From assembly GCA_045809185.1 (NCBI GenBank), contig JBJNRH010000003.1: a stretch of 32,000 nucleotides of DNA, one strand, 5' to 3'. The DNA comes from Nocardiopsis yanglingensis. Its GTDB lineage: Bacteria; Pseudomonadota; Gammaproteobacteria; Xanthomonadales; Xanthomonadaceae. How positions within the stretch are numbered: position 1 is the stretch's first letter; each line of letters opens with the position of its first letter. The position numbers and the translations under genes were made by a program. Shown here one piece after another: positions 17,486-32,000 of this stretch. The notes beneath the pieces were generated by a model that was not told the origin of the DNA, searched no databases, and saw only the letters and a list, made by a program, of their open reading frames with translations.

Positions 17486-17525
17486 TGGAGCCGGCTCTGG
17501 AGCAGGGCAGGAGGGTGGGGCCCGG

Positions 17526-18374: not shown

Positions 18375-18463
18375 GTGGCATCGGACGCCATCCTGCGCGT
18401 TTTTACAAGCGCCCCCGGGGCTGGCGCGCTAGCCTGCGTCCAACCGATCCAGGAGGTCAGGGC

Positions 18464-18940: not shown

Positions 18941-19051
18941 GGGGTGAGCGGTCCGGCCCCCGATTGTGCTGGTGACGCTGTCGGTCCATCCTCTCGAGCG
19001 CAAACCTGCTCTCACTTGGCGGCAGGCGTTCGACCTCACAGAGGCCCCGTA

Positions 19052-20371
19052 ATGACTGCGGCGACCAGATTCCAGCTCCTCGCACCACCGGCGCAACGCA
19101 CGCTCGTGATAAGCATCCTGGTGCTCAGCTTGGTGGCCTGGGTGTGTACGGCCGCCGTCCTTGCCATCGGCGGCCGGCCTGATCCATCCAGGCTCCGCCC
19201 TGTGGCACCTTTGATTGACGGGCCGTGGAAATTTCACGTCGGTGACGATCCGCGCTGGGCGGGTATCGTGTTGGATGATTCGTCCTGGGAAACACTCGAC
19301 CTGAGCGCACCGGCCAGCAGCATCGACGGCGACGTGGGACTGCCCAACTATGTCGGCGGATGGATGGCACACGGTCACTCCGGGTACCAGGGATATGCCT
19401 GGTACCGGCGCTCGCTTGTGATTCCAGAGGGCGACCGCGTATGGGACATCCTCGGGCCTACCGTCGTGGAGGATGGCTACGAGCTGTACTGGAACGGCAA
19501 GCGCCTTGGGGGCTCAGGCAGGCTAGGGGAGTCGCCTCGTGTCGTGGGTACGCGACCGATGATCTTTTCGCTTCCCTCCGATGCGGCAGGCACGCAGGGT
19601 GTGATCGCCATAAGAGCATTCATGCAGCCTGGCAGCGTTGCCGGCCCCGCGAGCGGCGGCATCCACGTGGCCCCGACACTAGCTCCGCAGCCAGAAAGCC
19701 GTGAGCTGTATCGCGTGCAATGGTGGCGTAGCGTCGCGGGCTACATTGTTGAAGTGGTCGAGCCGCTTGCGATGGCCATGGTGATCGTGTTGGCGCTGTC
19801 GTTGAGGCAGCTCAGCAGCCACCAGTCGTTCATCGCCTTCGTTTGCGTCGCGCTTCTGCTCTCTGCCGTGAAGCGGCTCGACAACGCGATCGTCTCCTGG
19901 ACGGATCTGCTCAGCCTTCCTGCCTACACATGGTTGAACAATGTGCTGTGGATGCCGCTCAGCCTGGCGGCATGGGCGCTGGCGTGGAATCGCTGGGCGC
20001 TTCCACCTTCGCGGGGGATCGATGCTGGTAGCCTTGTTCTGGCGGCTCTGGGGATTGCCGGAGGCGCTATGGGGGCGGCCTGGGGCACACAGGTCTTCCG
20101 CCTCGGCACACTCGCGCTGCTCGTGCTTGTCGCCGCGCGGACAGCCCGCCATGGGCCAATGCGCGGCATGGCACTGACCGTGCTGCTGGTAATTGCCGTA
20201 TCGCAGTACACGAGCGAACTCGGCTCGCTGGGGGTTCCAACGATCTGGTTCCCGTTCGGGATTGGCGTGACGCTGACCCAGTATGTGTATGGAATTGCCA
20301 TCCCGCTGCTGGCGGTGTTGATCGTGCGGACGGTCGCGACGGCTAAAGTGGTTCCTGGGAGGCGGCAGTGA
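19052..20371 (+). CDS. 7TM membrane receptor-like protein with an N-terminal extracytoplasmic galactose-binding-like domain and no output domain
   Basis: ATG 19052 (MTAATRF). One N-terminal TM, then a domain of about 200 aa (WKFHVGDDPRWA...YAWYRRSL, 7TMR-DISMED2-like), then about 7 hydrophobic helices to the C-terminus. Confidence 0.65.
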   Translation: MTAATRFQLLAPPAQRTLVISILVLSLVAWVCTAAVLAIGGRPDPSRLRPVAPLIDGPWKFHVGDDPRWAGIVLDDSSWETLDLSAPASSIDGDVGLPNYVGGWMAHGHSGYQGYAWYRRSLVIPEGDRVWDILGPTVVEDGYELYWNGKRLGGSGRLGESPRVVGTRPMIFSLPSDAAGTQGVIAIRAFMQPGSVAGPASGGIHVAPTLAPQPESRELYRVQWWRSVAGYIVEVVEPLAMAMVIVLALSLRQLSSHQSFIAFVCVALLLSAVKRLDNAIVSWTDLLSLPAYTWLNNVLWMPLSLAAWALAWNRWALPPSRGIDAGSLVLAALGIAGGAMGAAWGTQVFRLGTLALLVLVAARTARHGPMRGMALTVLLVIAVSQYTSELGSLGVPTIWFPFGIGVTLTQYVYGIAIPLLAVLIVRTVATAKVVPGRRQ

Positions 20372-20500
20372 AACGGATGCCGGTGACAGGGGACCAGCGG
20401 TGTGGCCACATTGATTGCGAGGGTTGGCCAGATTCCCATCAGGCTCCATGCCAGGGCAGGAACTCAGGGACTGGGCGGGAGCCGTCTCGGCCCTCAATGG

Positions 20501-20528
20501 CTAGAACATAATATACATACCGCCGTTG
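20501..20528 (-). other. hybrid XerCD site (attL): intact XerD arm and spacer, degenerate XerC arm
   Basis: The bottom strand reads CAACGGCGGTA-TGTATA-TTATGTTCTAG, compared with dif ATTTCGCATAA-TGTATA-TTATGTTCAGA at 26438-26465. Confidence 0.8.
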
Positions 20529-20887
20529 TCGGCAGCGCTAACCGCCTGAATTTGGGCGGTTTTTGCGTTTGCGAGACCTGGCATCGACAGCGCTACCAGC
20601 GCGACGACCGCAGCCGCCGCGCTCATTCTGTCCAGCATGAGGCGCCAGAGAGCCCGCTCGGTTGCCGACTGCGCCCGTTCTGCGTGGATCAATGCAATCC
20701 ACAGCGGTCCATCCAGCTTTCCGAGGGCGCAAAGCTGCGCAATTCGCTCATCCGGGATCGGATTCCGGCCAGATCGCCATGTACTGACCACTGCGCGGGT
20801 CAGTCCCAGCCGCTGAGCTAAAGCATTGTCGGACGGGAAGTTTCCGGCTTCCCGGACCTTGTCAAGTAGATCGTTGACGCTGCTCAT
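20501..20887 (-). CDS. phage HTH repressor-like protein (Cro/CI-like) with a hydrophobic C-terminal segment
   Basis: ATG 20887. HTH NALAQRLGLTRAVVSTWRSGRN. Divergent from the phage structural operon. The last 5 codons and the stop lie inside the att site. Confidence 0.7.
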   Translation of the reverse strand: MSSVNDLLDKVREAGNFPSDNALAQRLGLTRAVVSTWRSGRNPIPDERIAQLCALGKLDGPLWIALIHAERAQSATERALWRLMLDRMSAAAAVVALVALSMPGLANAKTAQIQAVSAADNGGMYIMF

Positions 20888-20900
20888 GTATGCGATTCCG

Positions 20901-20929
20901 TTGACATGCCGTTTGCGGATCACTATACA
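20901..20929 (+). promoter_or_regulatory. sigma-70 promoter for the rightward phage operon (TTGACA-17-TATACA)
   Basis: -35 at 20901-20906, exact 17-nt spacer, -10 at 20924-20929. A leftward TATAGT (complement of 20922-20927) overlaps it face-to-face. Confidence 0.6.
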
Positions 20930-20936
20930 TCGCCCC

Positions 20937-20956
20937 TGTATGCAGGTTTGCATACA
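20937..20956. promoter_or_regulatory. candidate operator palindrome TGTATGCA-N4-TGCATACA
   Basis: Perfect 8-bp arms immediately downstream of the -10. A third half-site, TGTATGCG, at 20887-20894 overlaps the repressor ATG. Confidence 0.45.
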
Positions 20957-21024
20957 CCCGCTACCGGCACCCCAAGGCCGTTGGCGGGTTCCCTTGGGGC
21001 GGGGCTTGGGGGAAGGGCAGGGCA

Positions 21025-21189
21025 ATGGATGCGACCGTTCTAGGTATCGTGGGGATGTGCTTGATCGCGGTGATCGTGGGCTTGGCCCGGATCACGGCTT
21101 GGTGGTTGGACCGGCGTGAGTACGCCGCTGGTCAGGGGGCACGCCAAGCGATCGCCATTGCCCAGGCAAGCGCCGAGGTGCGCCGATGA
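21025..21189 (+). CDS. 54-aa single-pass membrane miniprotein
   Basis: MDATVLGIVGMCLIAVIVGLARITAWWL... with high GC3. The stop overlaps the next ATG (ATGA). Below the ORF-track size cutoff. Confidence 0.45.
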   Translation: MDATVLGIVGMCLIAVIVGLARITAWWLDRREYAAGQGARQAIAIAQASAEVRR

Positions 21190-21269
21190 TCTTCCTGATC
21201 CCGCTTGTTCTCGTGGCCATCTTCTGGTGGTTCAAACACGTCCGCAGCGGCAGGGGGCCATTCGAATGA
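21186..21269 (+). CDS. 27-aa hydrophobic micropeptide
   Basis: MIFLIPLVLVAIFWWFKHVRSGRGPFE, with ATGA overlaps at both ends. Confidence 0.4.
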   Translation: MIFLIPLVLVAIFWWFKHVRSGRGPFE

Positions 21270-21364
21270 GTGACCTCAAAACCTATTCGGTCATTGTCGG
21301 TGGCTGGATTCTGATCGTCGTTTTCATCGCATGGCTGCGCGCCCGCGAAGGGCGACAGAAGTGA
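21266..21364 (+). CDS. 32-aa single-pass membrane micropeptide
   Basis: MSDLKTYSVIVGGWILIVVFIAWLRAREGRQK. ATGA overlap with the preceding micro-ORF. Confidence 0.45.
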   Translation: MSDLKTYSVIVGGWILIVVFIAWLRAREGRQK

Positions 21365-21473
21365 GCCTCTTGCTCGACCGCCTTCATCGGTGGATCTGGC
21401 GTTTGCCCGCGTGCAAGCCCGGTCATTGCTGCTGCCGCCGCACGTGCATTTGCATCATTCAGGAGCCGACCGA

Positions 21474-22451
21474 ATGAGCGGCGGAACCTGCAAATTCTGC
21501 GGGAACATCAGCGTCCACCTGTTCAAAGGCGGCCTCTGCTACGAGTGCAGCGAAAGCGACGTGCGCGTGCCTGTATCGGCGACGCCGGTTGATCGCCGCT
21601 CACCCGAGCTAGCTGCATTCGACGCGGCAAACGCACGCGCCTACGGCGCCCAGCGTCGTGCTGAGCTGTTCAATGAGAAGAACGCCGCGCACGGATTCTC
21701 GGCGGCGGCCGGAGGCCGTCGCCTTGGGCTTGTCCATTCTTCAACAAGTGACACGCGGCGCGTGTCACTCACTCTCGATCCGAATCACATTCGCGGACTG
21801 CGACTGAAGAAGTCGCTGATTACCGGAGCAAGGCTTCATGACCAAGAGGCGAAACAAGGCTCGTTCCGTGGCGCGTGGTACATGCTCACCACGACTTACC
21901 GAAACGGAAGTGACGCTGGCCCTCGTGACATTAGCGAGACACTTAAGCGCATCCGGGGCTTCTTCAATCGAGCTGTCCGATTGCGCTACCGGGGATACCG
22001 TCCGCGTTTCCGTTACCTCTGGTGCGGTGAACTCACTAAAGCCGGGGTTCCCCATTACCACGTCTTGATCTACATCCCTCGCGGGATTTTCTTGCCCAAG
22101 GCTGACAGGGCAGGGTGGTGGCCTCACGGCCATACCAAGATTGAAAAAGCCCGCAATGCAGTGGGCTATCTGGCGAAGTACGCCAGCAAATTTTCCCCCG
22201 ACATGCTCGCGTCGTTCCCGAAGGGATTTCGGACCCATGCCATCGGTGGACTCAACACGGAATCGAAGCGTGAACTGCGTTGGTGGAAAGCACCTAAGGC
22301 AGCACGCGATGCACTCGGCGTACTTGCCGACATCCGCAAAGCCCTGGGCGGCTACGTGGACAAAATCACCGGCGATTTCTGGCCCTCGCCGTGGAAAGTG
22401 ATCACCGACAGGGGCCGGATCATCGTATGGAAATTGGAGATACCCGCATGA
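21474..22451 (+). CDS. rolling-circle replication initiator (HUH, gene II-like) with an N-terminal zinc ribbon
   Basis: AGGAG RBS 8 nt before ATG 21474. CKFCGN...CYEC ribbon, HUH motif PHYHVLIY and Tyr motif GYLAKYASK. Confidence 0.8.
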   Translation: MSGGTCKFCGNISVHLFKGGLCYECSESDVRVPVSATPVDRRSPELAAFDAANARAYGAQRRAELFNEKNAAHGFSAAAGGRRLGLVHSSTSDTRRVSLTLDPNHIRGLRLKKSLITGARLHDQEAKQGSFRGAWYMLTTTYRNGSDAGPRDISETLKRIRGFFNRAVRLRYRGYRPRFRYLWCGELTKAGVPHYHVLIYIPRGIFLPKADRAGWWPHGHTKIEKARNAVGYLAKYASKFSPDMLASFPKGFRTHAIGGLNTESKRELRWWKAPKAARDALGVLADIRKALGGYVDKITGDFWPSPWKVITDRGRIIVWKLEIPA

Positions 22452-22750
22452 GCAAGATCATCATCCGCACCGCCACCGTCACCCCGCGTCAGATCAAGCG
22501 GAAGGACGGCAGCACCATGGTTTTCCGCGAACAGTCCGCTGCGATCATGAAGGATGGCGAGGACTTTCCGCATCCGTTCCGCCTCGGTCTGGACGATTCA
22601 CAGGCCCCGTATCCGGCTGGCGAGTATCAGGTTGATGCGTCGAGCTTCAACGTGGGTCAGTACGGTGATCTGATCGTCGGTCGCCGCCTTGTGCTGGTTC
22701 CTGTCGCACCTGCTGCGACTGCAGCCGCAGCCGTCTCAGCCAAGGCCTAA
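22448..22750 (+). CDS. ssDNA-binding protein (g5p-like)
   Basis: 100 aa with an ATGA overlap on the Rep stop. Same size, position and Ala-rich tail as the prophage-2 counterpart at 31134-31436. Confidence 0.65.
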   Translation: MSKIIIRTATVTPRQIKRKDGSTMVFREQSAAIMKDGEDFPHPFRLGLDDSQAPYPAGEYQVDASSFNVGQYGDLIVGRRLVLVPVAPAATAAAAVSAKA

Positions 22751-22753
22751 GTC

Positions 22754-22945
22754 ATGGCGCGGTACGTCTACGAATGCCTGCAATTCAATCAGCAGACCGG
22801 CACCTGTGAGCAGGCTGGATTCGTGCCGCGCACCGATATTCCCGCACTTACCACTGCCGAGGTGTCGGGAATCCTGTCCATGGTTGCGGTGTGTTTCGCC
22901 GTGGCATGGGCATACAAGCAAATAGGCAGAACCATCCGTAACTAG
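22754..22945 (+). CDS. small membrane protein preceding the coat gene (possible minor virion protein)
   Basis: 63 aa with a C-terminal TM (ILSMVAVCFAVAWAY). Positionally equivalent to 30873-31130 in prophage 2. Confidence 0.55.
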   Translation: MARYVYECLQFNQQTGTCEQAGFVPRTDIPALTTAEVSGILSMVAVCFAVAWAYKQIGRTIRN

Positions 22946-22960
22946 TGAAAGGGGAACACC

Positions 22961-23098
22961 ATGGAACTCGACGCAACCGCCGCATTGACTGTTCTGCAAG
23001 GACTGGCCGCTGTCCTGGGCACCATCGGCGCAGCAAAGCTCGCACCGGCCGCAATCTCGGTCGGCTTCAAGTGGATCAAGGGCGCGATCTTCGGTTGA
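22961..23098 (+). CDS. major coat protein (g8p-like, 45 aa, Pf3-type without signal peptide)
   Basis: MELDATAALTVLQGLAAVLGTIGAAKLAPAAISVGFKWIKGAIFG has an acidic N-terminus, a hydrophobic core and a basic C-terminus. RBS AAAGGGGA. Below the ORF-track cutoff. Confidence 0.75.
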   Translation: MELDATAALTVLQGLAAVLGTIGAAKLAPAAISVGFKWIKGAIFG

Positions 23099-23110
23099 TC
23101 GCGGTAACAC

Positions 23111-23135
23111 GGGGCCGGGCAATCCGGCCCCTTTT
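23111..23135 (+). terminator. rho-independent terminator after the coat gene
   Basis: GGGGCCGG-gcaat-CCGGCCCC followed by TTTT, the classic inovirus position. Confidence 0.8.
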
Positions 23136-23151
23136 CTATGGGGGATTCGTG

Positions 23152-23214
23152 ATGCTGGGTCTATTCGTTCTCTGCGCCGGCAGTGCCGCGCTTTACATCG
23201 CCTTTGGTGATTGA
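23152..23214 (+). CDS. 20-aa hydrophobic peptide (g7p/g9p-like candidate)
   Basis: MLGLFVLCAGSAALYIAFGD. GGGGGA upstream, and the stop overlaps the g3p-like start. Prophage 2 has a 27-aa equivalent at 30139-30222. Confidence 0.35.
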   Translation: MLGLFVLCAGSAALYIAFGD

Positions 23215-24155
23215 TGATGGGACTGTTCCTTCGCCTAGCGGTGTTCGCGTTGCTGATTGGCGTGTCCTCGCAGGCGCTCGCGGATGATCAGGGCGAGGCG
23301 TATGCAAAGTGTGTTCAGCAACTTGCGAAATTGACTGGTGAACGGATCGTTGACCGCCAGTGCGTGGTTGAGATTTATACCGGTGGCGCGTTTGGCGGCG
23401 CATATCGAGCGAAATACCGACTCAGGACTGATAGTGGTGGTGTTAGTTCACAGATTCAGAGCGGCCCGGACTTCAACTGGATTAAGGCATGCAGCGTCCG
23501 ACCGGAAGAGCTTGGTTGGGAGGGCGGCGCGACAGCGGCATCGGTGAACGCCTGTCACAAAGGCTGCATGTATTCCAGCTCGCTCGACCCGCTAGGGGTG
23601 GCGGGTTTTAGCTACACACCCACGGGTGGCATCTGTACGGAGTCCGATGCTCCAGCGCCAACGCCAGCAGGTGATGGCGGCGGGGATGATGGTGGTGGAA
23701 CTGGCGGTGAGACGGGTGGCGGGGATGGTGACGGCGGGGGCGACGGCGGGGGCGACGGTGATGGAGGTGGGGATGGTGGCGGCAACGGCGAGGGCGGTGG
23801 AAATGGAGATGGTGACGGTGATGGCGGCAGTGACGGCGGGGAAGATGGTGACGGTGATGGCGATGGCGATGGCGAGAATCCTAGCCTCCCCGAGAACCCT
23901 ACGTATCCCGGCGACGTGCCAATGCCCTACATGGACCCACCGATTCCGAGTAGCTACTTAGGGCAATGGTCTAGTGGTCTTGGTGGTGGTTCCTGTCCCG
24001 CTGCGAAGGTCATCACTGTTGGCGTTGGACCTGTCTCTACTACCGTCAGTTTTGAGTTCAAACCGCTCTGCGATTTCGCGCTGATGATCAAGGGCTTGGT
24101 CATCGCCTGCGCCGCGATCGCAGCTGTATATATCGTTTCTGGAGTGCGCAAATAA
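23214..24155 (+). CDS. minor coat / host-attachment protein (g3p-like) with a Gly/Asp-rich linker
   Basis: Signal peptide ...SSQALA|DDQGEAY, a Cys-containing N-domain, a GDGGG-type linker and a C-terminal membrane anchor (LVIACAAIAAVYIV). Confidence 0.75.
   Translation: MMGLFLRLAVFALLIGVSSQALADDQGEAYAKCVQQLAKLTGERIVDRQCVVEIYTGGAFGGAYRAKYRLRTDSGGVSSQIQSGPDFNWIKACSVRPEELGWEGGATAASVNACHKGCMYSSSLDPLGVAGFSYTPTGGICTESDAPAPTPAGDGGGDDGGGTGGETGGGDGDGGGDGGGDGDGGGDGGGNGEGGGNGDGDGDGGSDGGEDGDGDGDGDGENPSLPENPTYPGDVPMPYMDPPIPSSYLGQWSSGLGGGSCPAAKVITVGVGPVSTTVSFEFKPLCDFALMIKGLVIACAAIAAVYIVSGVRK
23671..23876 (+). repeat. degenerate GGTGAYGGYGGNGGN coding repeats (Gly/Asp linker of g3p-like protein)
   Basis: Encodes GDGGGDDGGGTGGETGGGDGDGGGDGGGDGDGGGDGGGNGEGGGNGDGDGDGGSDGGEDGDGDGDGDGE. 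Confidence 0.8.
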
Positions 24156-24439
24156 TGCCGTGGTTAGCAGCCTTCCTTGTCCAGCTTCTGGGCAACTCTC
24201 TCGCCCGTGTTCTCACTGGCGCTGGCCTCGGTCTCGCAACAGGCGCAGCCCTGTTGCCGCTTGTGAAGGGCGCACTGAACCTCATCACCCAGAAGTGGTC
24301 AGGCATCGCGGCCGATCTCGCCAATGTGATGCTCATGGCCGGGGCAGGGGAGGCCATCACCATGATCGGTTCCGCAATCGTGACCAAGGTTGTCATTGAT
24401 GCGGGCAAGGTCGCCGTACAGAAGGCAGCTTCCAAATGA
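24155..24439 (+). CDS. g6p-like minor coat membrane protein
   Basis: 94 aa and hydrophobic. TAATG overlap with the g3p-like gene and ATGA overlap with zot. Confidence 0.6.
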   Translation: MPWLAAFLVQLLGNSLARVLTGAGLGLATGAALLPLVKGALNLITQKWSGIAADLANVMLMAGAGEAITMIGSAIVTKVVIDAGKVAVQKAASK

Positions 24440-25650
24440 TGTATCTAATCTCGGGGCAACCCGGCAATGGCAAGACCTTGCGCGCGATGTCGATGGCGCT
24501 TGAGTTCTACGAGCAGAACCAGCAGCAGGTAAAGGAAGGCAAGGCGCAGCCGCGCCGATTCTTTACCAACATCGCGGGCGCCACAGTAGAGGAGGGCGCA
24601 GACGCTTTCCCGTGGATGGAGAAGCTGCCCGAACACAACGACTGGACACAGCTTCCGGACGGCTCTTTCGTGATCTACGACGAAGCGCATTCCGATGGCA
24701 ACACTCAGGGGCTGGAGCGTTACGGCAAGCTGTTCCCGTCGACCGGAAAGCCAGGTGAATCCGATGATCCTCGCATCCGCGCTATGTCGACACATCGGCA
24801 TCGCGGTTTCGATCTTGTGTTCGTCACGCAATGGCCGAACAAGATTCACCATCAGGTGCGCACTCTCATCGGTTCGCACACGCACATGAATCGTTCGTTC
24901 GGCATGCAGCGGGCAGGCGTCCTTACGTGGTCGCGCGTCCAAAGTGACCCGTACGATGAGAAGGTGCGCGACAAGGCCGAAGAGGAAATCTGGGCTTACC
25001 CCAAAGCGCTGTATAGCCGCTATCGCAGTGCGACGCTGCACACGGCCAGCCACAAATTCAAGGTTCCTACGAAGGTCTGGCAGGCGCTGTCCGTCACCAT
25101 TGCGCTAGTCCTTGGTGTCTGGATGATCTACGCGTTCATCATCAAACCGCCATCGGCACCAAAGAAGGTGGATCAGGGGGCCGGTGCTTTGCCGGCGGCT
25201 GGAGCCCTGGCGCCCTTGGGCGCGGGCGTGCCGGCGGCACGGCCCCTCAACCGTGAGGAGTACATCGAACGTCACAAGCCGCGGATTGAGTTTCAGCCGT
25301 GGTCGGCACCCGCCTTTGATGATCGCAGCGTTCAATCGCAGCCTGAGTTGTATTGCATGGCATCTGGCACCACCGAGCAGGACACAACGTGCACGTGCGT
25401 AACAGAGCAGGGCACTAAGGCCAAGATTTCAATCCCGGTATGTGTGGCGATCGCACGCGATGGCCCGGCTTACAATCCCTACCGCGCTCCCCGTCAGCAG
25501 TCCGAACCCGTTCGGGAAGAAGAATCCCGGAGTATTGCGAAGGCCGCTTCAACGGATTCGCCAGAGGCGGCCGCGCACGCGCTGATTGAGGTTGGCAAGC
25601 GTCCTATGGGCACATTCCCAGAGACGCCACCGTACCCGGCAAGCTTCTAA
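24436..25650 (+). CDS. zot: Zot / g1p-like assembly ATPase
   Basis: Walker A GQPGNGKT, Walker B VIYDEAH, a central TM (ALSVTIALVLGVWMIYAFI) and a periplasmic C-terminal domain. Confidence 0.85.
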   Translation: MMYLISGQPGNGKTLRAMSMALEFYEQNQQQVKEGKAQPRRFFTNIAGATVEEGADAFPWMEKLPEHNDWTQLPDGSFVIYDEAHSDGNTQGLERYGKLFPSTGKPGESDDPRIRAMSTHRHRGFDLVFVTQWPNKIHHQVRTLIGSHTHMNRSFGMQRAGVLTWSRVQSDPYDEKVRDKAEEEIWAYPKALYSRYRSATLHTASHKFKVPTKVWQALSVTIALVLGVWMIYAFIIKPPSAPKKVDQGAGALPAAGALAPLGAGVPAARPLNREEYIERHKPRIEFQPWSAPAFDDRSVQSQPELYCMASGTTEQDTTCTCVTEQGTKAKISIPVCVAIARDGPAYNPYRAPRQQSEPVREEESRSIAKAASTDSPEAAAHALIEVGKRPMGTFPETPPYPASF

Positions 25651-25976
25651 CGTGACGCATCACGGGCGCAGGTCGAAGACACCTGCACCCATCCGTTCTC
25701 AACTCTGCGGAACGTTTGACCATTGATGCATCGGTGTCCTGCAGGCAGGACCTTGGGGGCTTCCGCTCGGCCCGCAGCTTCGCGCTGCTGGCGCACCTCA
25801 TCGAGCGACATGCTCTGGCCAATCTGCCGGGTAAGCTGCTCAATGGCGCGTTCCTGTTCTTTCATGGCCGCGTGTCCTGCGATGCCCAGGACACCGCATG
25901 TGGCAAGCAGCAGAGCGCTGCCGCCTACGAACACCCCTAACGCCACCTTCCAAACCAATCCCGTCGAATTCGCCAT
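25647..25976 (-). CDS. membrane-anchored hypothetical protein (phage accessory)
   Basis: 109 aa with an N-terminal TM (VALGVFVGGSALLLATCGVLGI). The C-terminal CINGQTFRRVENGWVQ motif is shared with 26993-27400. Convergent with zot, with a 4-nt overlap. Confidence 0.5.
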   Translation of the reverse strand: MANSTGLVWKVALGVFVGGSALLLATCGVLGIAGHAAMKEQERAIEQLTRQIGQSMSLDEVRQQREAAGRAEAPKVLPAGHRCINGQTFRRVENGWVQVSSTCARDASR

Positions 25977-26017
25977 CTATGGCACCCCCAAGTGATCCAG
26001 CGGCCATTCTACGGGGT

Positions 26018-26036
26018 GTAGGGGCGGCGCCCCTAC
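26018..26036. repeat. GTAG...CTAC palindromic hairpin (REP/SMAG-like); probable terminator or phage DNA structure
   Basis: GTAGGGGC-ggc-GCCCCTAC. A homologous copy lies in mirror position at 26966-26984 with conserved flanks. Confidence 0.6.
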
Positions 26037-26045
26037 GGAAGCGCC

Positions 26046-26387
26046 TCACACGCGCTGGCGTGGTCTCGGCCCCGGCAGCGGCAGGACACCCTCAACAGGA
26101 TCGGCGTCAGGACCAGCCATCACCGTGGAAGACCGCTTTGCGCGGCGATGGGCAACCTCAGCCAGGTCAACGATGCCCGCACGCCCGAATGGCCGTTTCT
26201 GGCCGCCTCGGGCAATCTCCATCATGCGGCGCCATTCCTGCGCTTGCGCGGCCAGCAGCGACAGCCACGCAAGATCCTGCGGCTCCAGCTCACGGCCCTC
26301 GGGAGTGACCAGTCGGCCACCCTTAAACGAAAAACCGGCCCAAGGGCCGGTTAGGTTGCGATCACGCACAATCAGGCTCCATGCCAC
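26046..26387 (-). CDS. DUF3653-like phage protein (candidate XafT-like Xer activation factor), prophage 1
   Basis: Only the C-terminal 113 codons of the 253-aa track ORF are supported. GTG 26387. About 55% identity to the 26575-26955 product (LTGPWAGFSF.G.RL.TPEGREL.P.DLAWLSL...QAQEWRRMME). Lies 51 nt from dif. Confidence 0.6.
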   Translation of the reverse strand: MAWSLIVRDRNLTGPWAGFSFKGGRLVTPEGRELEPQDLAWLSLLAAQAQEWRRMMEIARGGQKRPFGRAGIVDLAEVAHRRAKRSSTVMAGPDADPVEGVLPLPGPRPRQRV

Positions 26388-26437
26388 AGCAGGGCTGGGG
26401 ATCGAGGCAAGATGCGTGCCAGCCACCCCCGGATTGC

Positions 26438-26465
26438 TCTGAACATAATATACATTATGCGAAAT
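26438..26465 (-). other. dif: intact XerCD dif site (XerC arm - 6-bp spacer - XerD arm)
   Basis: The bottom strand reads ATTTCGCATAA-TGTATA-TTATGTTCAGA; E. coli dif is GGTGCGCATAA-TGTATA-TTATGTTAAAT. GGGNAGGG polarity switches here. Confidence 0.85.
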
Positions 26466-26574
26466 CGCGTATCCGTCGAATCTGGGCCTTTGTTGGATCC
26501 GCGTGGCAATGGCTGGGCCTCTGGCTCGGCTCTTGCCTGCGCCCTCAGACCCCGGCCAAGGATGAGATCGCGGC

Positions 26575-26955
26575 ATGATCGTGTTCGACCCGCACCACCG
26601 TATCGACTTGACCGGCCCTTGGGCCGGTTTTTCTTTCCTAGGCGACCGCCTGATCACGCCCGAAGGTCGTGAGCTACTGCCCGAGGATCTGGCCTGGCTG
26701 TCGCTCACCGCCTGCCAAGCGCAGGAATGGCGTCGGATGATGGAAGCTGCACGCTCGGCACCGTCGATCGACAGTTCCAGAAATGGGCATAATCGGCACG
26801 CCAGCATTCGTCATCATCCTGCCACTGTTGTCAATCTGCGGGACGTTGTGAGCCAACGCAAACAGCGTTCGGCGGTGGCGATGGCCGGCCCTGACGCCGC
26901 ACCACCTGCAGCAGACCTACCGGCACTGGGGCCAAGGCGCCACGAGCGCGTGTGA
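26575..26955 (+). CDS. DUF3653-like phage protein (candidate XafT-like Xer activation factor), prophage 2
   Basis: 126 aa. Paralog of 26046-26387, transcribed away from dif, 110 nt from the XerC arm. Confidence 0.65.
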   Translation: MIVFDPHHRIDLTGPWAGFSFLGDRLITPEGRELLPEDLAWLSLTACQAQEWRRMMEAARSAPSIDSSRNGHNRHASIRHHPATVVNLRDVVSQRKQRSAVAMAGPDAAPPAADLPALGPRRHERV

Positions 26956-26965
26956 AGCGTTTCTC

Positions 26966-26984
26966 GTAGGGGCGCTGCCCCTAC
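26966..26984. repeat. GTAG...CTAC palindromic hairpin, mirror copy
   Basis: GTAGGGGC-gct-GCCCCTAC. The flanks GTGTGAAGCG...ACACCCCG match the reverse complement of 26010-26050. Confidence 0.6.
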
Positions 26985-26992
26985 ACCCCGAT

Positions 26993-27400
26993 TCATTGCT
27001 CGCGGCAACGCAGCCATTCGCCCTTGGCATTTCGCAACTGTTCCCAGCCGTTGTTTAGGCGGCGCATCGCAGTGCCCCCCATGCAGGCAGCGCCCAGCTG
27101 CTTTGCCTCAGCGCTCCCGTAGGCTGGCATGCGCACAATCTCGCTCGATGGCGTTGGTATGCCTTGACGATGCGCCTCGCTCTGGATCAAGGATCGTTCA
27201 ATGTCAGCGCAATAGAGCCGAATGCGCGGATCGAGGTGCTGCTGGCATTTCAGCGGCTCAGCGCCAAGATTGCTCGCCTTCGGTGTTGGCGGCACGTACC
27301 TGGGCACTGGTTGCGATCCGGTTGCCGAGCGTAGTTGTTGTGCATGCGCAGGTGCCCACAGCAGCAGTAAAGCCAGAACTAGGCCTGATCGAATGTCCAT
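26993..27400 (-). CDS. secreted hypothetical protein (phage accessory)
   Basis: ATG 27400. Signal peptide MDIRSGLVLALLLLWAPAHA. The C-terminal CMGGTAMRRLNNGWEQ motif is shared with 25647-25976. Confidence 0.55.
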   Translation of the reverse strand: MDIRSGLVLALLLLWAPAHAQQLRSATGSQPVPRYVPPTPKASNLGAEPLKCQQHLDPRIRLYCADIERSLIQSEAHRQGIPTPSSEIVRMPAYGSAEAKQLGAACMGGTAMRRLNNGWEQLRNAKGEWLRCREQ

Positions 27401-27442
27401 TTCGCCCCCAAGGTTCGGGGGCATGGTATCCCATTGCGAAAA

Positions 27443-28735
27443 TCAGAAGCTCGCCGGATAAGGCGGCGTCTCTGGGAACGTACCCAACGGGCGCTTCCCA
27501 ACTGCAATTAGAGTGCTCCCGTTCGCCGCGGCGGTGGTCGGCTGTGTCTCGCTCGCGCTCGTCACAGGCGACCCCGCCGCAGCCTTTATGCGCGCGGTCG
27601 TAGCATCGGACTGCTCGCCAAACGGGTCTACGGGCCAAGTCGTGGCAATGATCTCGTGCCCCTTAGCGCTCAGCAGCACGCCAAATTCGGTGCGTTTAAC
27701 CGACCACCCCAGCGCCCACAACTGCTCAGTGGTGAATCGATCAAGCACCTGACCGCCGCCCGTAGCCCGAAACTCCACAATGTCGCGCTGCCCATACCAG
27801 CCGGCATGCCGCGCCCTGGCATTGGCCGTCATGTCCAGCACGTACTGCACGCCTGCTGGAAGGCGCTCCTTCTCCTTCGCAGGCTCAGCCACCTTTGTCA
27901 CCACTGTTGCAGGCTGAGAGCCGGGGGCGTGGGCAATGGCCGGAATCGCGGCCTTCTGCGAAGCAACAACGCCTTTAATCTTGTCTGTACCGCCCGTGGT
28001 GCCATCTGCGATAAAGAACCGCCCCAGCATTACGACGCCGACAATCAGCGCGAGCGCCATAAGGATTGCCGGACCGCGCAGGGTCTTCCACAGGGTGCGC
28101 GTGTTCCCCTTGTAGACCTCATTGGATTCAATGCCCGGCTGCACGCCGTGGTAGAGCTCCCAGATGGCCGGGTCGTACTTGCGGACCTCTGTGCCCACCG
28201 TTTCATATTTGCCGGTGCCAGTGGCCGCATAGAACCGCACCGAATATCGCTGATCGGACCCCAGCGCGTCGAGCTTGGTATACGTGTTCTTCTTCGCCAT
28301 GCGGCGGATGATCAGGCGATGCAGGTCTTTGCAGTCCTGCGAGATGATCACCATGTCCAAGCTGATATGGCCGTGCTTGGCGAAGAAGTTTGCAGCGCGC
28401 TCAGGCAGATTGGCGCGATTGGTCGGCCAGTACTCGTGCGCCTCATCGATCACGATCAGTGCGTGCTTCTCGATGTGTGGGAACGAAATGGCGCCATCGT
28501 TGTCGGTGTCGCATACGCACCAATCAACCACTTCCTTGTCGCCCATCACATGCACCAGCTCGCGCACCTCTTCTTCAGGCATGCCCAGGTGGGCAGCGAT
28601 CTTATCGAGGCTCTCCCCTACCCCGTTTAGACGCACGTAGACATGTCGCTTCGCCCGCAATGCAGGAAGGATGTGATGCAGAACCGCCTCGTAGCTCTTG
28701 CCGCTGCGCGGCAAGCCTTCATGGCCGAAGATCAT
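27443..28735 (-). CDS. zot: Zot / g1p-like assembly ATPase
   Basis: ATG 28735. Walker A GLPRSGKS, Walker B VIDEAH and a TM (ILMALALIVGVVMLGRFFI). C-terminal GKRPLGTFPETPPYPASF is nearly identical to the prophage-1 Zot tail. Confidence 0.85.
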   Translation of the reverse strand: MIFGHEGLPRSGKSYEAVLHHILPALRAKRHVYVRLNGVGESLDKIAAHLGMPEEEVRELVHVMGDKEVVDWCVCDTDNDGAISFPHIEKHALIVIDEAHEYWPTNRANLPERAANFFAKHGHISLDMVIISQDCKDLHRLIIRRMAKKNTYTKLDALGSDQRYSVRFYAATGTGKYETVGTEVRKYDPAIWELYHGVQPGIESNEVYKGNTRTLWKTLRGPAILMALALIVGVVMLGRFFIADGTTGGTDKIKGVVASQKAAIPAIAHAPGSQPATVVTKVAEPAKEKERLPAGVQYVLDMTANARARHAGWYGQRDIVEFRATGGGQVLDRFTTEQLWALGWSVKRTEFGVLLSAKGHEIIATTWPVDPFGEQSDATTARIKAAAGSPVTSASETQPTTAAANGSTLIAVGKRPLGTFPETPPYPASF

Positions 28736-28739
28736 TTCG

Positions 28740-29138
28740 TTACGTCCACTGGAAGAGAGTGAGGAACACCCGCACAAGGCGGAATACAAGTGCAGCCGTC
28801 AGTACCGCGATAGCCTCACCGACGCGCAACTGGGCAACGATGAACGCGGTCCACGGCCCCGCAGCGTTGAGCATTGCGCAGAAGCTGATCTGCGACAGGA
28901 AATCAGGCGCTGGAATCAGATACACGATGGCCTTGACGAACGACAACACCAGCTCGATGAAGTCGGTCTGTAGATCCGTCATGAAATCGGAGAAATCCGC
29001 CCACAACGACGTGATCTGCTCCTTTGCCCACGTGGTGAGGGCGGTGACCGGCCCTACCCCATCGGCATATGCCCACGACGCTGACAGCACGAGCACAAGC
29101 AGCGCCGCAGCCAGCACGATCAGATGATTACGCTTCAT
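28740..29138 (-). CDS. g6p-position minor coat/membrane protein (unrelated in sequence to prophage-1 g6p-like)
   Basis: ATG 29138 with an ATGA overlap on the g3p-like stop. 132 aa with several hydrophobic helices. Confidence 0.55.
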   Translation of the reverse strand: MKRNHLIVLAAALLVLVLSASWAYADGVGPVTALTTWAKEQITSLWADFSDFMTDLQTDFIELVLSFVKAIVYLIPAPDFLSQISFCAMLNAAGPWTAFIVAQLRVGEAIAVLTAALVFRLVRVFLTLFQWT

Positions 29139-30142
29139 AGCAGTGCCCACCTCAGCGCAACGATGCCCATGCCCGCAAGGAAGACGAATCCGGCGTACTG
29201 AAATAGCTGTAGCAGTGGGCCGGAGCACAGCGAGGCCAGGTCAAACTTGCCCGCGTACTGTCCACCGTCCCACGTTGCGGTCGGACAACTGCCACCGCCG
29301 GTACAGCTGCCAAAGAAGCCTTTGACCTTCGACAAGATCGGGGCCCCTTCAATGGCCGTCTTGAACTCCGCTATCACCTTTTGAACCGTCTTGCCCGACT
29401 TCTTGTAAAGACGCCCGGTCGTTGGGCCTGTTCCGCCGCCGTCACCTCCCTCACCTGGCCCCGGGCCAGTACCGCCACCGTCACCCGGGCCGGTACCACC
29501 ACCGTCACCGTCACCGTCCCCCGGCCCCGTGCCGCCGCCATCGCCGCCGCCCGGGCCAGTACCTCCACCATCGCCGCCGCCCGGGCCTGTGCCGCCATCG
29601 CCACCGCCACCATCGCCGCCACCATCGCCGCCACCGTCGCCCGGACCGGTGCCGCCGCCATCGCCGCCTCCTTCGCCGGGATCGGGATTGGTTGGCTCCG
29701 GGTGGTCGTTCGTGCTGCACGCCTCACCGGTAGGCGTAAATAGACGCCCCGTTGGGGACTGCGCATAAAGCGAACCCCCATACGTGCAGCCGTTACTGCA
29801 AACACTGCCTAGGCCGTTGTCGCCACCACCCTTCCAGCCAAGTTCCTCCGGTCGGGCGCTGCATGCTTTGATCCAGTTGAAGTCCGGACCGCTCTGAATT
29901 TGTCCACTGACACCGCCACTGTCAGTCCTAAGCCGGTACATGGCTCGATAGGCGCCACCAAACACACCAGTGGTATAGATCTGGTTCACACACTGGCGAT
30001 CAACAATTTTTTCCCCCGTCGTCTTGGAAAGCTGATTAAGGCACTTGGCGTATGCCTCGCCCTGATCATCCGCGAACGCCACGAAAGGCATCAGCCCGAA
30101 GGCAAGAAGTACAGCGAGCACTGCACATCGGGCGGGCGTCAC
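29135..30142 (-). CDS. minor coat / host-attachment protein (g3p-like) with a GGGDGGGTGP repeat linker
   Basis: GTG 30142. Signal peptide ...FVAFA|DDQGEAY. The N-domain is about 70% identical to the prophage-1 g3p-like protein; the C-domain is different. Confidence 0.75.
   Translation of the reverse strand: MTPARCAVLAVLLAFGLMPFVAFADDQGEAYAKCLNQLSKTTGEKIVDRQCVNQIYTTGVFGGAYRAMYRLRTDSGGVSGQIQSGPDFNWIKACSARPEELGWKGGGDNGLGSVCSNGCTYGGSLYAQSPTGRLFTPTGEACSTNDHPEPTNPDPGEGGGDGGGTGPGDGGGDGGGDGGGGDGGTGPGGGDGGGTGPGGGDGGGTGPGDGDGDGGGTGPGDGGGTGPGPGEGGDGGGTGPTTGRLYKKSGKTVQKVIAEFKTAIEGAPILSKVKGFFGSCTGGGSCPTATWDGGQYAGKFDLASLCSGPLLQLFQYAGFVFLAGMGIVALRWALL
29428..29682 (-). repeat. approximately 30-nt coding repeats (GGGDGGGTGP units) in the g3p-like linker
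   Basis: Repeated CCGGGCCNGTNCCNCCNCCATCGCCGCCGC units on the + strand. Confidence 0.8.
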
Positions 30143-30222
30143 TGACTTGCCTCATTGAATGCCAGGGCGACCGCATGACCAGCAAGGCCGCCGATGAACG
30201 CAAAGACCATGCACACAAGCAT
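30139..30222 (-). CDS. 27-aa hydrophobic peptide (g7p/g9p-like candidate)
   Basis: MLVCMVFAFIGGLAGHAVALAFNEASQ. Strong SD AGGGAGGA, and GTGA overlap with the g3p-like start. Confidence 0.4.
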   Translation of the reverse strand: MLVCMVFAFIGGLAGHAVALAFNEASQ

Positions 30223-30224
30223 CG

Positions 30225-30494
30225 TCAATCCTCCCTTTCTGATTGGCCGCAGAAGACGCATTCGCCGCCATCGAACTCGTGCCCCACTTCATCGCAAACG
30301 GCTTCATCTACCTCGCCCGCCTGATCGTCCGCGTGTTCGTCGGCGTCAAGCTCTTCCCGATCTTCGAAGAAGCCTGCGATCTTTTCGACGCACCAGCGCC
30401 CGAAAAGAGGAAGGGCCAATAGCGTGCCGGCACCCACAATCGCGGCCAGTGCTTGTGCAACTGAAAGCCCGAGAAATACCCCACTGAAGTCCAT
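30225..30494 (-). CDS. coat-protein paralog with an acidic, Cys-containing C-terminal extension
   Basis: ATG 30494 with a GGGGGA SD. Residues 1-44 align with the prophage-2 coat (about 45% identity: MDF..GL.V..A..AI.GAG.L.A.P.F.RW...K.A.FF). They are followed by EDREELDADEHADDQAGEVDEAVCDEVGHEFDGGECVFCGQSERED. Confidence 0.6.
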   Translation of the reverse strand: MDFSGVFLGLSVAQALAAIVGAGTLLALPLFGRWCVEKIAGFFEDREELDADEHADDQAGEVDEAVCDEVGHEFDGGECVFCGQSERED

Positions 30495-30502
30495 CGTTCC
30501 CC

Positions 30503-30640
30503 CTAGTAGTCGATGACCACCCGGCATTCCGTGCACCACAGATTGCCGTCATCCAGAACGATCACGTCATCGCCGCCGCACTCGGGGCACCAGTCGTCCT
30601 GGCACTCATCGACATTGACGTCATCAAGCTGGGGCTGCAT
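30503..30640 (-). CDS. 45-aa acidic zinc-ribbon miniprotein
   Basis: MQPQLDDVNVDECQDDWCPECGGDDVIVLDDGNLWCTECRVVIDY (CPEC-x15-CTEC). Below the ORF-track cutoff. Immediately upstream of the coat paralog. Confidence 0.5.
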   Translation of the reverse strand: MQPQLDDVNVDECQDDWCPECGGDDVIVLDDGNLWCTECRVVIDY

Positions 30641-30690
30641 AGGAATCGGGGCCGGTTTCCCAGCCCCTACCCGGCGCGACTCTTCCGCTA

Positions 30691-30825
30691 TCAGCGGAAG
30701 AAGTTCGCGACCTTGTTGGTGGCCCAGCGGGCGAAGCCCGGCGAGGCCTTCAGTGCGCCCGCACCGATGATGGCGCTCACGGCGCTGGTGACTGCGAGGC
30801 CGGTCAGGATGCTGTCGAAATCCAT
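30691..30825 (-). CDS. major coat protein (g8p-like, 44 aa)
   Basis: ATG 30825 with an AAGGAG SD. MDFDSILTGLAVTSAVSAIIGAGALKASPGFARWATNKVANFFR. Confidence 0.75.
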   Translation of the reverse strand: MDFDSILTGLAVTSAVSAIIGAGALKASPGFARWATNKVANFFR

Positions 30826-30872
30826 TGCAATACTCCTTCTGTGATGCGCGTTTTGCGCGTTGGATGGGGTGG

Positions 30873-31130
30873 TCAATCCCGCTCTGTACTGACCGACTTC
30901 ACGACGGCGCCCACGATGTAGCCCAGCACGTTGAGTGCGAGCACCAGCGAGAACACCCCCGAGAACCAACCAGCGGCCACTTCCGGTTCGGGCCACTGAA
31001 ATAGATCGATGAGAATTGAGGCCTGTGCGTGTTCTGCCGCCGACACAAGCACATACCCACCACACTGCGATGCAGGCTCCCCGGTGGGTACGAGCGTCCC
31101 CTCAGCTGTCAGAGACACGCACACGGCCAT
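30873..31130 (-). CDS. small membrane protein preceding the coat gene
   Basis: 85 aa with a C-terminal TM (WFSGVFSLVLALNVLGYIVGAVV). Same position as 22754-22945. Confidence 0.55.
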   Translation of the reverse strand: MAVCVSLTAEGTLVPTGEPASQCGGYVLVSAAEHAQASILIDLFQWPEPEVAAGWFSGVFSLVLALNVLGYIVGAVVKSVSTERD

Positions 31131-31133
31131 GAC

Positions 31134-31436
31134 TTAGGCCTGAGCAGCCGCGCGAGGTGCGGACTTCGGCACCATGCGCAGGACGGTGAACTTGCTCAGC
31201 GATGCCACGCCCTTGTTGACCTGCAACATGGACTCAACGTCGAGCTCGTACTCGCCTTCGGGGTAGCCCGGCTGGCCCTTGTCCAGGCGCACGTCGAACG
31301 GATAGGCAAAACCACCGGTTTCAAGCTTGGCCTTCTGCTTGCGGGTGGTGTACTCGACGTTCTCACCAGCGTCGTTCTTGAAGCTGCCGCCGCGTTCGTC
31401 AATTTCGTTCTTGAGGACGGTGACCTTGATGCTCAT
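31134..31436 (-). CDS. ssDNA-binding protein (g5p-like)
   Basis: 100 aa, directly downstream of Rep. Similar motif to the prophage-1 protein (PYPAGEYQVD versus GYPEGEYELD). Confidence 0.65.
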   Translation of the reverse strand: MSIKVTVLKNEIDERGGSFKNDAGENVEYTTRKQKAKLETGGFAYPFDVRLDKGQPGYPEGEYELDVESMLQVNKGVASLSKFTVLRMVPKSAPRAAAQA

Positions 31437-31442
31437 GTGCTG

Positions 31443-32000
31443 TTACCCCTTTGAGGTTGGCTGTACGGCCGCGATTTCGGGCCAGTGCGCTGCTGTGTCA
31501 CCTGTGACCCACTTCGGCAGCGATGGCGAAGTGCAGGATTCGATTACCGCCCGCAACGCCTGATCGTCAGGGCAGTTCTTGGCGATGAAATTGAGGGCCG
31601 CACCGTACTGGCGACGAATGTGGCGACGAACGCTCTTCCATGTCGCTTCAACGGCGGCTTTCGTGATTTCGATGCGCGTGGCAACACAGCGCAGAAAGGA
31701 CAGGACCGGATAGGCGCCGAGCAGGTAGGAGGCCGGGTCACGCAGAATGTCGAGCGGCAGTTCCTTACGATTGGAGTTGCGGAACTGGGCCTCGTAGCGC
31801 ACCCACGGCGAACTCTTGTCGCCCTGCTCCCTGCCCTTCTCGTAGACGCGCAGCTGCTTTTCAGATTTCTTGCCGCCGACATAGAACGTCTTGCCGTCAC
31901 CGCTGTCGTAGTCATCCACCAGCTGCGCTTTAGGGCGCTGACCGCGATTGTTGAACTCACCTTCCTCGTACCACTTCTGCGCGAGCCGCAATGGGTATTC
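31443..32000 (-). CDS. replication initiation protein, Rep_trans (RstA-like) family; N-terminus outside the window
   Basis: The frame stays open to position 32000. FYVGGKKSEKQLRVYEKG resembles the YxGSRxSxxxxRxYDK motif of RstA-type initiators. Unrelated to the prophage-1 Rep. Confidence 0.65.
   Translation of the reverse strand, partial: EYPLRLAQKWYEEGEFNNRGQRPKAQLVDDYDSGDGKTFYVGGKKSEKQLRVYEKGREQGDKSSPWVRYEAQFRNSNRKELPLDILRDPASYLLGAYPVLSFLRCVATRIEITKAAVEATWKSVRRHIRRQYGAALNFIAKNCPDDQALRAVIESCTSPSLPKWVTGDTAAHWPEIAAVQPTSKG

Follow-up and report, generated by a model that had tools for sequence, protein, structure and literature searches.

The closest described systems to the locus reported here are the dif1 arrays of Vibrio cholerae, made up of TLC-phi, CTX-phi/RS1 and VGJ-phi. 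These elements carry no integrase and integrate at dif by means of XerC and XerD, the recombinases of the host, as integrative mobile elements that exploit Xer (IMEXs). With each integration a complete dif is restored, into which the next element can insert, and the element supplies part of that dif; TLC-phi, for example, replaces the XerC arm. XerCD-dependent integration at dif via the core TATACATTATGCGAA was shown experimentally for the inovirus XacF1 (PMC4076744), and integration of phiLf-UK and phiLf2 was shown by PCR (phiLf2 preprint). Here we describe a locus that is alike in these respects, found in a stretch of 32,000 nucleotides (in the following simply ‘the window’) of contig JBJNRH010000003.1, assembly GCA_045809185.1, deposited as Nocardiopsis yanglingensis. 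It contains two convergent inovirus prophages, prophage 1 and prophage 2, with a complete dif-like site, site A, between them. Our reading, to which we give a probability of roughly 0.85, is that both inoviruses integrated at the terminus dif as IMEXs through host XerC/XerD, that the attP of each had one good arm, and that the arms of site A came from both phages.

The main features are listed below by position in the window; the two attP classes are defined further on.

20501 to 20528, minus strand: site B, distal junction of prophage 1, with phage pseudo-XerC arm CAACGGCGGTA, spacer TGTATA and host XerD arm TTATGTTCTAG
20504 to 20518, no strand assigned: left copy of the 15-bp direct repeat GAACATAATATACAT, the crossover core (sequence read)
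20529 to 26437, plus strand: prophage 1, complete inovirus, 5,937-bp unit, class-2 attP (spacer and XerD arm), mosaic
26438 to 26465, minus strand: site A, composite dif, its XerC arm abutting prophage 2 DNA and its XerD arm abutting prophage 1 DNA
26441 to 26455, no strand assigned: right copy of the 15-bp direct repeat (sequence read)
26466 to 32000, minus strand: prophage 2, inverted inovirus, class-1 attP (XerC arm and spacer), cut by the window end, with SMA7-like body and SMA9-like att module

Direct reading of the minus strand gave ATTTCGCATAA-TGTATA-TTATGTTCAGA (XerC arm, spacer, XerD arm) at site A and CAACGGCGGTA-TGTATA-TTATGTTCTAG at site B, exactly as an earlier, sequence-only reading of this DNA had reported. 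The two sites are direct repeats having exactly 15 bp in common, GAACATAATATACAT, with different bases on either side, and this overlap had also been given correctly. The ‘5.96-kb inovirus’ between them is indeed an inovirus, 5.96 kb being the outer span (20501-26465) and 5,937 bp the repeat-to-repeat distance. The 15-bp core TATACATTATGCGAA that the same reading had ascribed to Cf1c/Cf16/XacF1-type Xanthomonas phages (26449-26463) was found in the Cf1c and XacF1 genomes, and is reported as att core in the XacF1 paper (PMC4076744) and in the phiLf2 preprint. A 28-mer dif query with up to three mismatches matched the window at site A alone and had no match in 100 shuffles, while the 13-mer TGTATATTATGTT, consisting of the spacer and the inner XerD arm, matched sites A and B only. 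When the inner arms were scanned around any 6-nt spacer, site A scored 17/17, no other site in the window reached 12, and the maximum over 30 shuffles was 13. A chance origin of sites A and B is excluded, and site A is the single two-armed dif-like site within the window.

As judged by its matches, the host chromosome is that of a Stenotrophomonas, with the window spanning the replication terminus; the phage matches were to inoviruses of Stenotrophomonas and Xanthomonas, and the left 14 kb of the window showed 83-87% identity to Stenotrophomonas genomes. In the comparisons, L-numbers denote comparison loci, among which L001-L004 and L069-L073 are free phage genomes and L100, L115, L141, L169 and L200 are IMG/VR contigs. 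Contig L085 is 100% identical to window positions 17123-20518 and then, exactly at the core, reads ATTTCGCATAA-TGTATA-TTATGTTCTAG; phage genes were absent from the 1.3 kb present on its XerC side. It is the kind of prophage-free relative that the sequence-only reading had wanted to see, and it recovers the ancestral dif. The native XerD arm TTATGTTCTAG followed by chromosomal DNA was likewise detected in Stenotrophomonas maltophilia with a class-1 prophage only (L051, L052, L059, L061) and in genomes with class-2 prophages only (L078, L079, L081, L083). Because L085 has TTATGTTCTAG at its intact site, site B retains the XerD arm of the host, and that of site A was supplied by a phage. Regarding the claim that site A is the only intact dif, two-armedness and uniqueness in the window stand, but its XerD arm departs from the native one at the three outermost positions. 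An initial assumption that the native XerD arm was of the E. coli type, TTATGTTAAAT, would have made both sites look hybrid and was abandoned, as the comparative loci give TTATGTTCTAG.

Prophage 1 sits precisely at the chromosomal dif, bounded by sites A and B where L085 has a single site at the same position. Joining its two ends at the core gave a reconstructed attP, CAACGGCGGTA-TGTATA-TTATGTTCAGA, which follows the SMA7 attP region collinearly for 72 nt in one direction and 67 nt in the other and also resembles the phiSHP2 attP region. The pseudo-XerC arm of site B is identical to the SMA7 attP arm. As the reconstructed attP continues into that of SMA7 without interruption, phage sequence makes up both the pseudo-XerC arm at site B and the XerD arm at site A. 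It also has the characters of the phiSHP2/SMA7 type (class 2), namely a non-consensus XerC-side arm, TGTATA, TTATGTTC and a position on the non-gene strand. The joined ends of this prophage yield the attP that had been postulated for it, in which the XerD arm and spacer are good and the XerC arm is degenerate. As a whole, prophage 1 is a mosaic of a phiLf/Xf409-like replication module, phiSHP2-like structural genes and an SMA7-like att module, with ~85% identity to phiSHP2 over 60% of its length.

In the case of prophage 2 (26466-32000), the second inovirus noted earlier to the right of site A in mirror orientation was found on the opposite strand, with ~85% identity to SMA7 over 92% of its length. 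Beside the XerC arm of site A, a stretch of 570 bp has 87% identity to the attP flank of SMA9 (window 26448-27022). A prophage in L060, L059 and L058 matches the visible part of prophage 2 at 90-95% identity up to the att core, with L060 agreeing as far as 26441. L060 and L065 hold that prophage complete, with the distal junction TTTTCGCATAA-TGTATA-CAACGTGGGCG and the proximal junction ATTTCGCATAA-TGTATA-TTATGTTCTAG, followed by host DNA. A distal hybrid with a degenerate XerD arm was also present in L005, L082 and L084. The Cf-type attP proposed for prophage 2 agrees with the SMA9-like flank by the XerC arm, and also with the L060/L065 relative being bounded by the predicted hybrid. As to that hybrid site at the far end of prophage 2, it was found in these close relatives, while the end of prophage 2 itself lies beyond 32000; if the prophage is complete, this end would carry (A/T)TTTCGCATAA-TGTATA and a CAACGTGGGCG-like degenerate XerD arm, near 33.5 kb.

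Altogether, as read from these alignments, site A takes its XerC arm from prophage 2 and its XerD arm from prophage 1, with the crossover placed within the 15-bp core. The earlier suggestion that both arms of this dif are phage-supplied was borne out by the SMA9-like flank at the XerC arm, the SMA7-collinear attP of prophage 1 at the XerD arm and the different native arm in L085. Pfam scans of the open reading frames (ORFs) of both prophages (prophage 2 to 32000) showed no integrase, resolvase or transposase, and there was none in the complete L060 relative. By analogy with the phages studied experimentally, both integrations presumably depended on Xer.

Published phage genomes were scanned for att sites, and the sites were also written in gene orientation. 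In class 1 (SMA9, PSH1, Cf1c, XacF1 and Xf109) the attP consists of XerC arm, spacer and degenerate XerD arm and lies on the gene strand. In class 2 (phiSHP2, SMA7 and SMA6) it consists of degenerate XerC arm, spacer and XerD arm and lies on the opposite strand. The good arm of either class lies closest to the DUF3653 gene, downstream of zot, in the 3' end of a regulator gene. In gene orientation class 1 reads ..CGCATAA TGTATA and class 2 ..AACATAA TATACA; the att site is mirrored in place between the two classes. Since the mirrored site keeps a fixed place, the complete site after integration always comes to lie at the zot/DUF3653 end of the prophage, and the side of dif on which elements pile up is the XerC side for class 1 and the XerD side for class 2. 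Given that free phages carry their attP on opposite strands, phages of different class end up tail to tail, and an inversion is unnecessary. Two ideas of the sequence-only reading hold up here: that the two phages use complementary halves of dif (XerD arm plus spacer in the attP of prophage 1, XerC arm plus spacer in that of prophage 2), and that the tail-to-tail geometry arose without inversion, as it also did with other phage pairs.

The convergent class-2/class-1 layout, in which the complete site joins a class-1 XerC arm to a class-2 XerD arm, was detected with full genomic context in at least six other Stenotrophomonas genomes (L062, L066, L063, L075, L082, L084). L062 and L066 combine an SMA6-like class-2 phage with a class-1 phage, and in L063 one class-2 prophage converges with two class-1 prophages that lie in tandem. 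The layout was also present in the five IMG/VR contigs, of which L200 equals site A over 28 bp plus the next 20 nt of the flank on the side of prophage 1. A 14-mer scan of IMG/VR had given 126 matches, 92 of them in low-GC contigs and mostly noise, and contigs with a GC content of at least 0.55 were kept. The same hybrid site is held by the complete genomes CP028899.1 and CP196976.1. Among 44 complete sites the XerD arm ended in CAAG in 15, in CAGA in 13 and in the native CTAG in 10. All 44 contain TTATGTTC, the first eight bases of the XerD arm, with the outer three varying. It is important to add that the filter demanded all eight bases, so that this invariance is not independent evidence, and that the loci were retrieved via phage proteins, which biases the 44-site sample.

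The distribution of the KOPS-like motif GGGNAGGG (KOPS, FtsK orienting polar sequences) was then compared between strands. The host flank gave a plus:minus count of 10:0, prophage 1 one of 4:0 and prophage 2 one of 0:4, with the strand switch exactly at site A (14:0 to its left, 0:4 to its right). In L060, L059 and L062 the motif likewise converges on the complete site. In nine free Xanthomonadaceae inovirus genomes it occurred 39 times on the gene strand and twice on the other; once the phages are integrated, their motifs, like their genes, are always directed at the regenerated dif. The cumulative GC skew of the window has its maximum at ~24-25 kb. The three bases in which the XerD arm of site A departs from the native one, being the outermost, also speak for its function. 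Site A is, from these sequence features, most probably the working chromosome-dimer resolution site.

The DUF3653 genes diverge from site A, one on each side, and their products are ~80% identical over the first 50 residues. PF12375 (DUF3653) matched on both sides of site A (E = 1e-8 and 5e-8), and the proteins carry the LTG/WAGFxF/TPE motifs of PSB15. Among related proteins, XafT activates XerD catalysis and is needed for efficient integration (PMC6744903), and PSB15 of phiLf-UK, the closer homologue, binds the packaging signal and was reported to be dispensable for integration. A role of the DUF3653 proteins as XafT-like XerD activators, which had been considered, was withdrawn on account of the latter report.

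A different origin of the tail-to-tail geometry would be an inversion by homologous recombination between tandem prophages with the same attP type. The two prophages do share inverted homologous segments, including the DUF3653 genes with their ~80% identity over the first 50 residues and short DNA matches, and tandem class-1 arrays exist (L054, L055, L057, L063, L064). Such an inversion is nevertheless very improbable. The ends of prophage 1 form an unbroken, known attP region, and site B has the native host XerD arm and flank, as in prophage-free L085. Both attP orientations already occur in free phage genomes, and the convergent layout recurs with other pairs, e.g. the SMA6-like and class-1 phages of L062/L066. 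Furthermore, inversion end-points inside the phages would give chimeric gene orders, and none were seen. A second question concerns the history of the locus and not its structure. The sequence-only reading had prophage 2 integrating first, which is not deducible: both orders give the same product and both single-prophage states exist. In the reverse order, prophage 1 would have entered the native dif and prophage 2 the resulting site of host XerC arm and phage XerD arm, and the chance of this seems to us only slightly under one half. Either order leads to host-C/S/d2-P2-C2/S/D1-P1-c1/S/Dh-host (C and D, XerC and XerD arms, degenerate in lower case; S, spacer; P, prophage). Lone class-2 prophages beside a host XerC arm in L078, L079, L081 and L083 fit an early arrival of prophage 1. 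However, lone class-1 prophages also occur (L059, L061) and the syntenic L005 has a class-1 prophage without prophage 1, neither being decisive. With an identical product from both, the order of integration is not inferable.

Several observations weigh against the composite-dif reading itself. At 3 of 11 positions, all outermost, the XerD arm of site A does not agree with native TTATGTTCTAG; the uniqueness of site A covers the 32-kb window only; and prophage 2 may be truncated, its distal junction being outside the window. Most close relatives have a Tn3-family transposase ~340 bp upstream of the Rep gene, and these loci showed no att site in the ~6-9 kb upstream that they cover. The gene-strand bias of the KOPS-like motif could partly be coding-strand composition, and with PSB15 reported dispensable an XafT-like activation of XerD is not to be assumed here. 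Both the differing XerD arm and the limits of the 32 kb examined, with the distal end of prophage 2 outside them, would suit the view that site A is merely a prophage-prophage junction, the working dif being elsewhere, e.g. beyond prophage 2 or at another terminus locus. We regard this as unlikely, given that a class-1 distal junction should carry a degenerate XerD arm, as seen in L060, L065, L005, L082 and L084, and that the KOPS-like motifs change strand exactly at site A. In addition, TTATGTTC is constant in the 44 complete sites (as the filter required) with only the outer three bases varying, and the complete genomes CP028899.1 and CP196976.1 have the same hybrid site. Concerning the KOPS-like motif, the gene-strand bias persists in Cf1c and XacF1, whose GC skew is ~0, and is therefore not composition alone.

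In the mechanism that we propose for the composite dif, prophage 2 (class 1) sits on the XerC side of dif and prophage 1 (class 2) on its XerD side. Each attP would recruit the missing recombinase cooperatively onto its pseudo-arm, and the identity of the spacer would permit both pairs of strand exchange. The degenerate arms at site B and at the distal junction of prophage 2 would block FtsK-driven XerCD recombination and so stabilise the prophages; such protection by a degenerate arm from FtsK-driven excision was proposed for the gonococcal genetic island (PMC6744903). Regarding the pseudo-arms, those on the XerC side of class 2 have C at the fifth innermost position in 13 of 14 distinct arms, and those on the XerD side of class 1 have G there in seven of eight, these bases lying in coding sequence and the variants being mutually related. 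The fifth innermost position was reported to be important for the TLC-phi attP (PMC9226527). As a tentative extension, possible rather than probable, the phiSHP2/SMA7/SMA6-type attP may represent a fourth IMEX attP type, a mechanistically distinct mirror of the TLC/Cf1c type. In this type the recombinase drawn to a minimal pseudo-arm, of which only the fifth innermost base pair is kept, would be XerC, not XerD; it would be the XerD arm of the host, not the XerC arm, that is replaced, and the types would have evolved by mirroring of the site at a fixed regulator-gene position. If true, phage genes and KOPS would always aim at the regenerated dif, arrays would extend both ways, and phages would progressively rewrite the host dif.

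The individual genes of the two prophages, together with the host gene next to site B, are the following.

19052 to 20371, plus strand: host membrane-protein gene, last chromosomal gene before site B on the XerD side, also beside the site in L085
20501 to 21025, minus strand: prophage 1 helix-turn-helix (HTH)/DUF3693 regulator, C-terminal codons (..GGMYIMF, stop) encoded by site B
21390 to 22451, plus strand: prophage 1 replication initiator (REP_ORF2-G2P), by Pfam
22391 to 22750, plus strand: prophage 1 single-stranded DNA (ssDNA)-binding protein (Phage_DNA_bind), by Pfam, true start probably downstream of 22391
23211 to 24155, plus strand: prophage 1 pIII-like minor coat protein, no Pfam match, assigned by position as the counterpart of phiSHP2 ORF328
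24155 to 24439, plus strand: prophage 1 DUF2523 (pVI-like) protein, identical protein in 141 blocks of the collection
24436 to 25650, plus strand: prophage 1 Zot/pI assembly ATPase, by Pfam
26046 to 26387, minus strand: prophage 1 DUF3653 protein (PSB15/XafT-like), start ~50 bp from the XerD arm of site A, reading away
26575 to 26955, plus strand: prophage 2 DUF3653 protein, start ~110 bp from the XerC arm of site A, reading away
27443 to 28735, minus strand: prophage 2 Zot/pI, 430 aa, identical protein in 66 blocks of the collection
29135 to 30142, minus strand: pIII-like protein of prophage 2, rich in glycine, its assignment based on position, as in relatives
30225 to 30539, minus strand: prophage 2 Inovirus_capsid protein, by Pfam
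30691 to 30825, minus strand: a second, small Inovirus_capsid protein of prophage 2, annotated with 44 aa in relatives
31134 to 31436, minus strand: prophage 2 ssDNA-binding protein
31443 to 32000, minus strand: prophage 2 Rep_trans replication initiator, C-terminal part only, the gene continuing past the window

The att core lies within the 3' end of the prophage 1 regulator gene, whose stop codon TAG is supplied by the host XerD arm (frame read from the sequence); in the circular phage the frame would run 22 codons further, into the start of the DUF3653 gene. With the core in this position, integration alters the C-terminus of the regulator, as was noted for XacF1 ORF12. An exact-protein look-up found no identical proteins on record for the prophage 1 Zot, the prophage 2 DUF3653 protein, a 135-aa ORF and the pIII-like protein. 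In the case of the ssDNA-binding protein and the prophage 2 Zot, identical proteins are on record, in other genomes only. As prophage 2 joins an SMA7-like (class-2) body to a class-1 att module and prophage 1 is a three-source mosaic, att modules have been swapped between similar phages. Att and regulatory modules are reassorted without regard to the phage body that carries them.

Around relatives of prophage 2 further elements were detected. The relatives with a Tn3-family transposase are L051-L059, L061-L064 and L066-L068 (e.g. L059 1082-5780), i.e. most of the S. maltophilia relatives. The transposase is accompanied by tyrosine recombinase, MerR and cation-efflux (czc-like) genes, which replace the regulator and the distal att site; the presence of Tn3-family genes at the prophage end points to transposon insertion or replacement. 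At 2097-5216, L060/L065 contain a tandem pair of 1.5-kb mini-elements that are not phages, each having TTTTCGCATAA-TGTATA-CGCCCTCTTCA at its boundaries and carrying a HicB/SEC-C-like gene. These mini-elements, on the XerC side of the array, look like small IMEXs.

The chromosomal genes to the left of site B encode a flavodoxin-like protein, a LysR-family regulator, a pirin, an AraC-family regulator, a DUF6265 protein and a 439-aa membrane protein. When the membrane protein was used as a query across genome contigs, one syntenic Stenotrophomonas locus was obtained (L005), the other relatives being mostly from Dyella, Luteibacter and Acidobacteria. With relatives mostly outside the genus, this gene is accessory and a poor anchor. 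A 5-kb block, 14040-19084, which holds the flavodoxin-like protein, LysR regulator, pirin, AraC regulator and DUF6265 protein genes, is missing from the otherwise syntenic locus L005 of Stenotrophomonas sp. RAC2, and the terminus-adjacent region is variable. In L005 the ~750 bp from the membrane-protein gene to the site (11280-12030) had no match in any fetched sequence, and the XerD arm of the site is TTATGTTCAAG, of the phiSHP2 type; this stretch may have decayed from a class-2 element or may be what natively flanks the site in that species. A further observation concerns Xanthomonas campestris ATCC 33913, whose dif was annotated as ATTTCGCATAA-TGTATA-TTATGTCAGGA at 2,442,019 (PMC2731167; bioRxiv 10.1101/2023.12.30.573655). 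Its XerD arm is that of the phiLf2 attP, and the site lies within a 12-kb phiLf-homologous region that was deleted by the authors of the preprint (bioRxiv 10.1101/2023.12.30.573655). This reference dif may also be an inter-prophage site.

Compared to known systems, the locus does not represent a system of a new kind; its phage groups are known, and the mechanism in general is an established one. The mirror-image class-2 attP is under-described, and the layout is common in the genus. In the literature searched, one related remark was found, stating that the DUF3653 gene's placement and orientation relative to dif vary with the subclass; the original description of SMA6/SMA7 was outside this search, and an earlier account of the class-2 attP is possible. 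Prophage 2 resembles the TLC-phi-type attP, to which Cf1c, XacF1, Xf109, SMA9 and PSH1 are assigned, in its consensus XerC arm, dif-identical spacer, degenerate XerD arm (in relatives) and DUF3653 neighbour. It differs from that type in that its DUF3653 protein is a separate small ORF without a fused HTH domain. Prophage 1 shares ~85% DNA identity with phiSHP2 (NC_015586) in the structural genes and has an attP region nearly identical to that of SMA7 (NC_021569). With phiSHP2, SMA7 and SMA6 (NC_043029) it has in common a pseudo-XerC arm, TGTATA and TTATGTTC on the non-gene strand, whereas its replication module is of the phiLf/Xf409 type (REP_ORF2-G2P), compared to Rep_trans in phiSHP2. The phiLf2/phiLf-UK attP is similar in its core TATACATTATGCGAA and in its att site lying, like that of class 2, on the minus strand with respect to the genes, but both arms of the phiLf2 attP are recognisable (TCTTCGCATAA-TGTATA-TTATGTCAGGA), and it falls into neither one-armed class.

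The other two Vibrio types were not matched. The CTX-phi-type attP has two inverted dif-like sites forming a forked hairpin in the ssDNA, whereas here each phage unit has one dif-like site and no second one of at least 12/17. The VGJ-phi-type attP has both arms and an XerD-side centre that is non-homologous to dif, whereas here the spacer is TGTATA in all sites and one arm is degenerate. The CTX, VGJ and TLC routes as characterised involve an attP with a recognisable XerC arm and tandem arrays; here, and in many public Stenotrophomonas genomes, a second inovirus family uses the other half of dif. This provides a simple rule for the orientation of prophages at the terminus and accounts for convergent pairs with no need of rearrangement. 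It also means that a dif read from a genome can be wholly phage-derived, which matters for automatic dif annotation and for the reconstruction of ancestral sites. Moreover, with the two attP classes nature provides mirror-image sites on which one can ask how degenerate arms are reached by XerC and XerD and which recombinase starts the exchange. Overall, the V. cholerae elements as described all keep the XerC arm and form tandem arrays only, whereas at this locus there is a second attP class in which it is the XerD arm that is kept, the array converges from two sides, and both arms of dif can be phage-derived.

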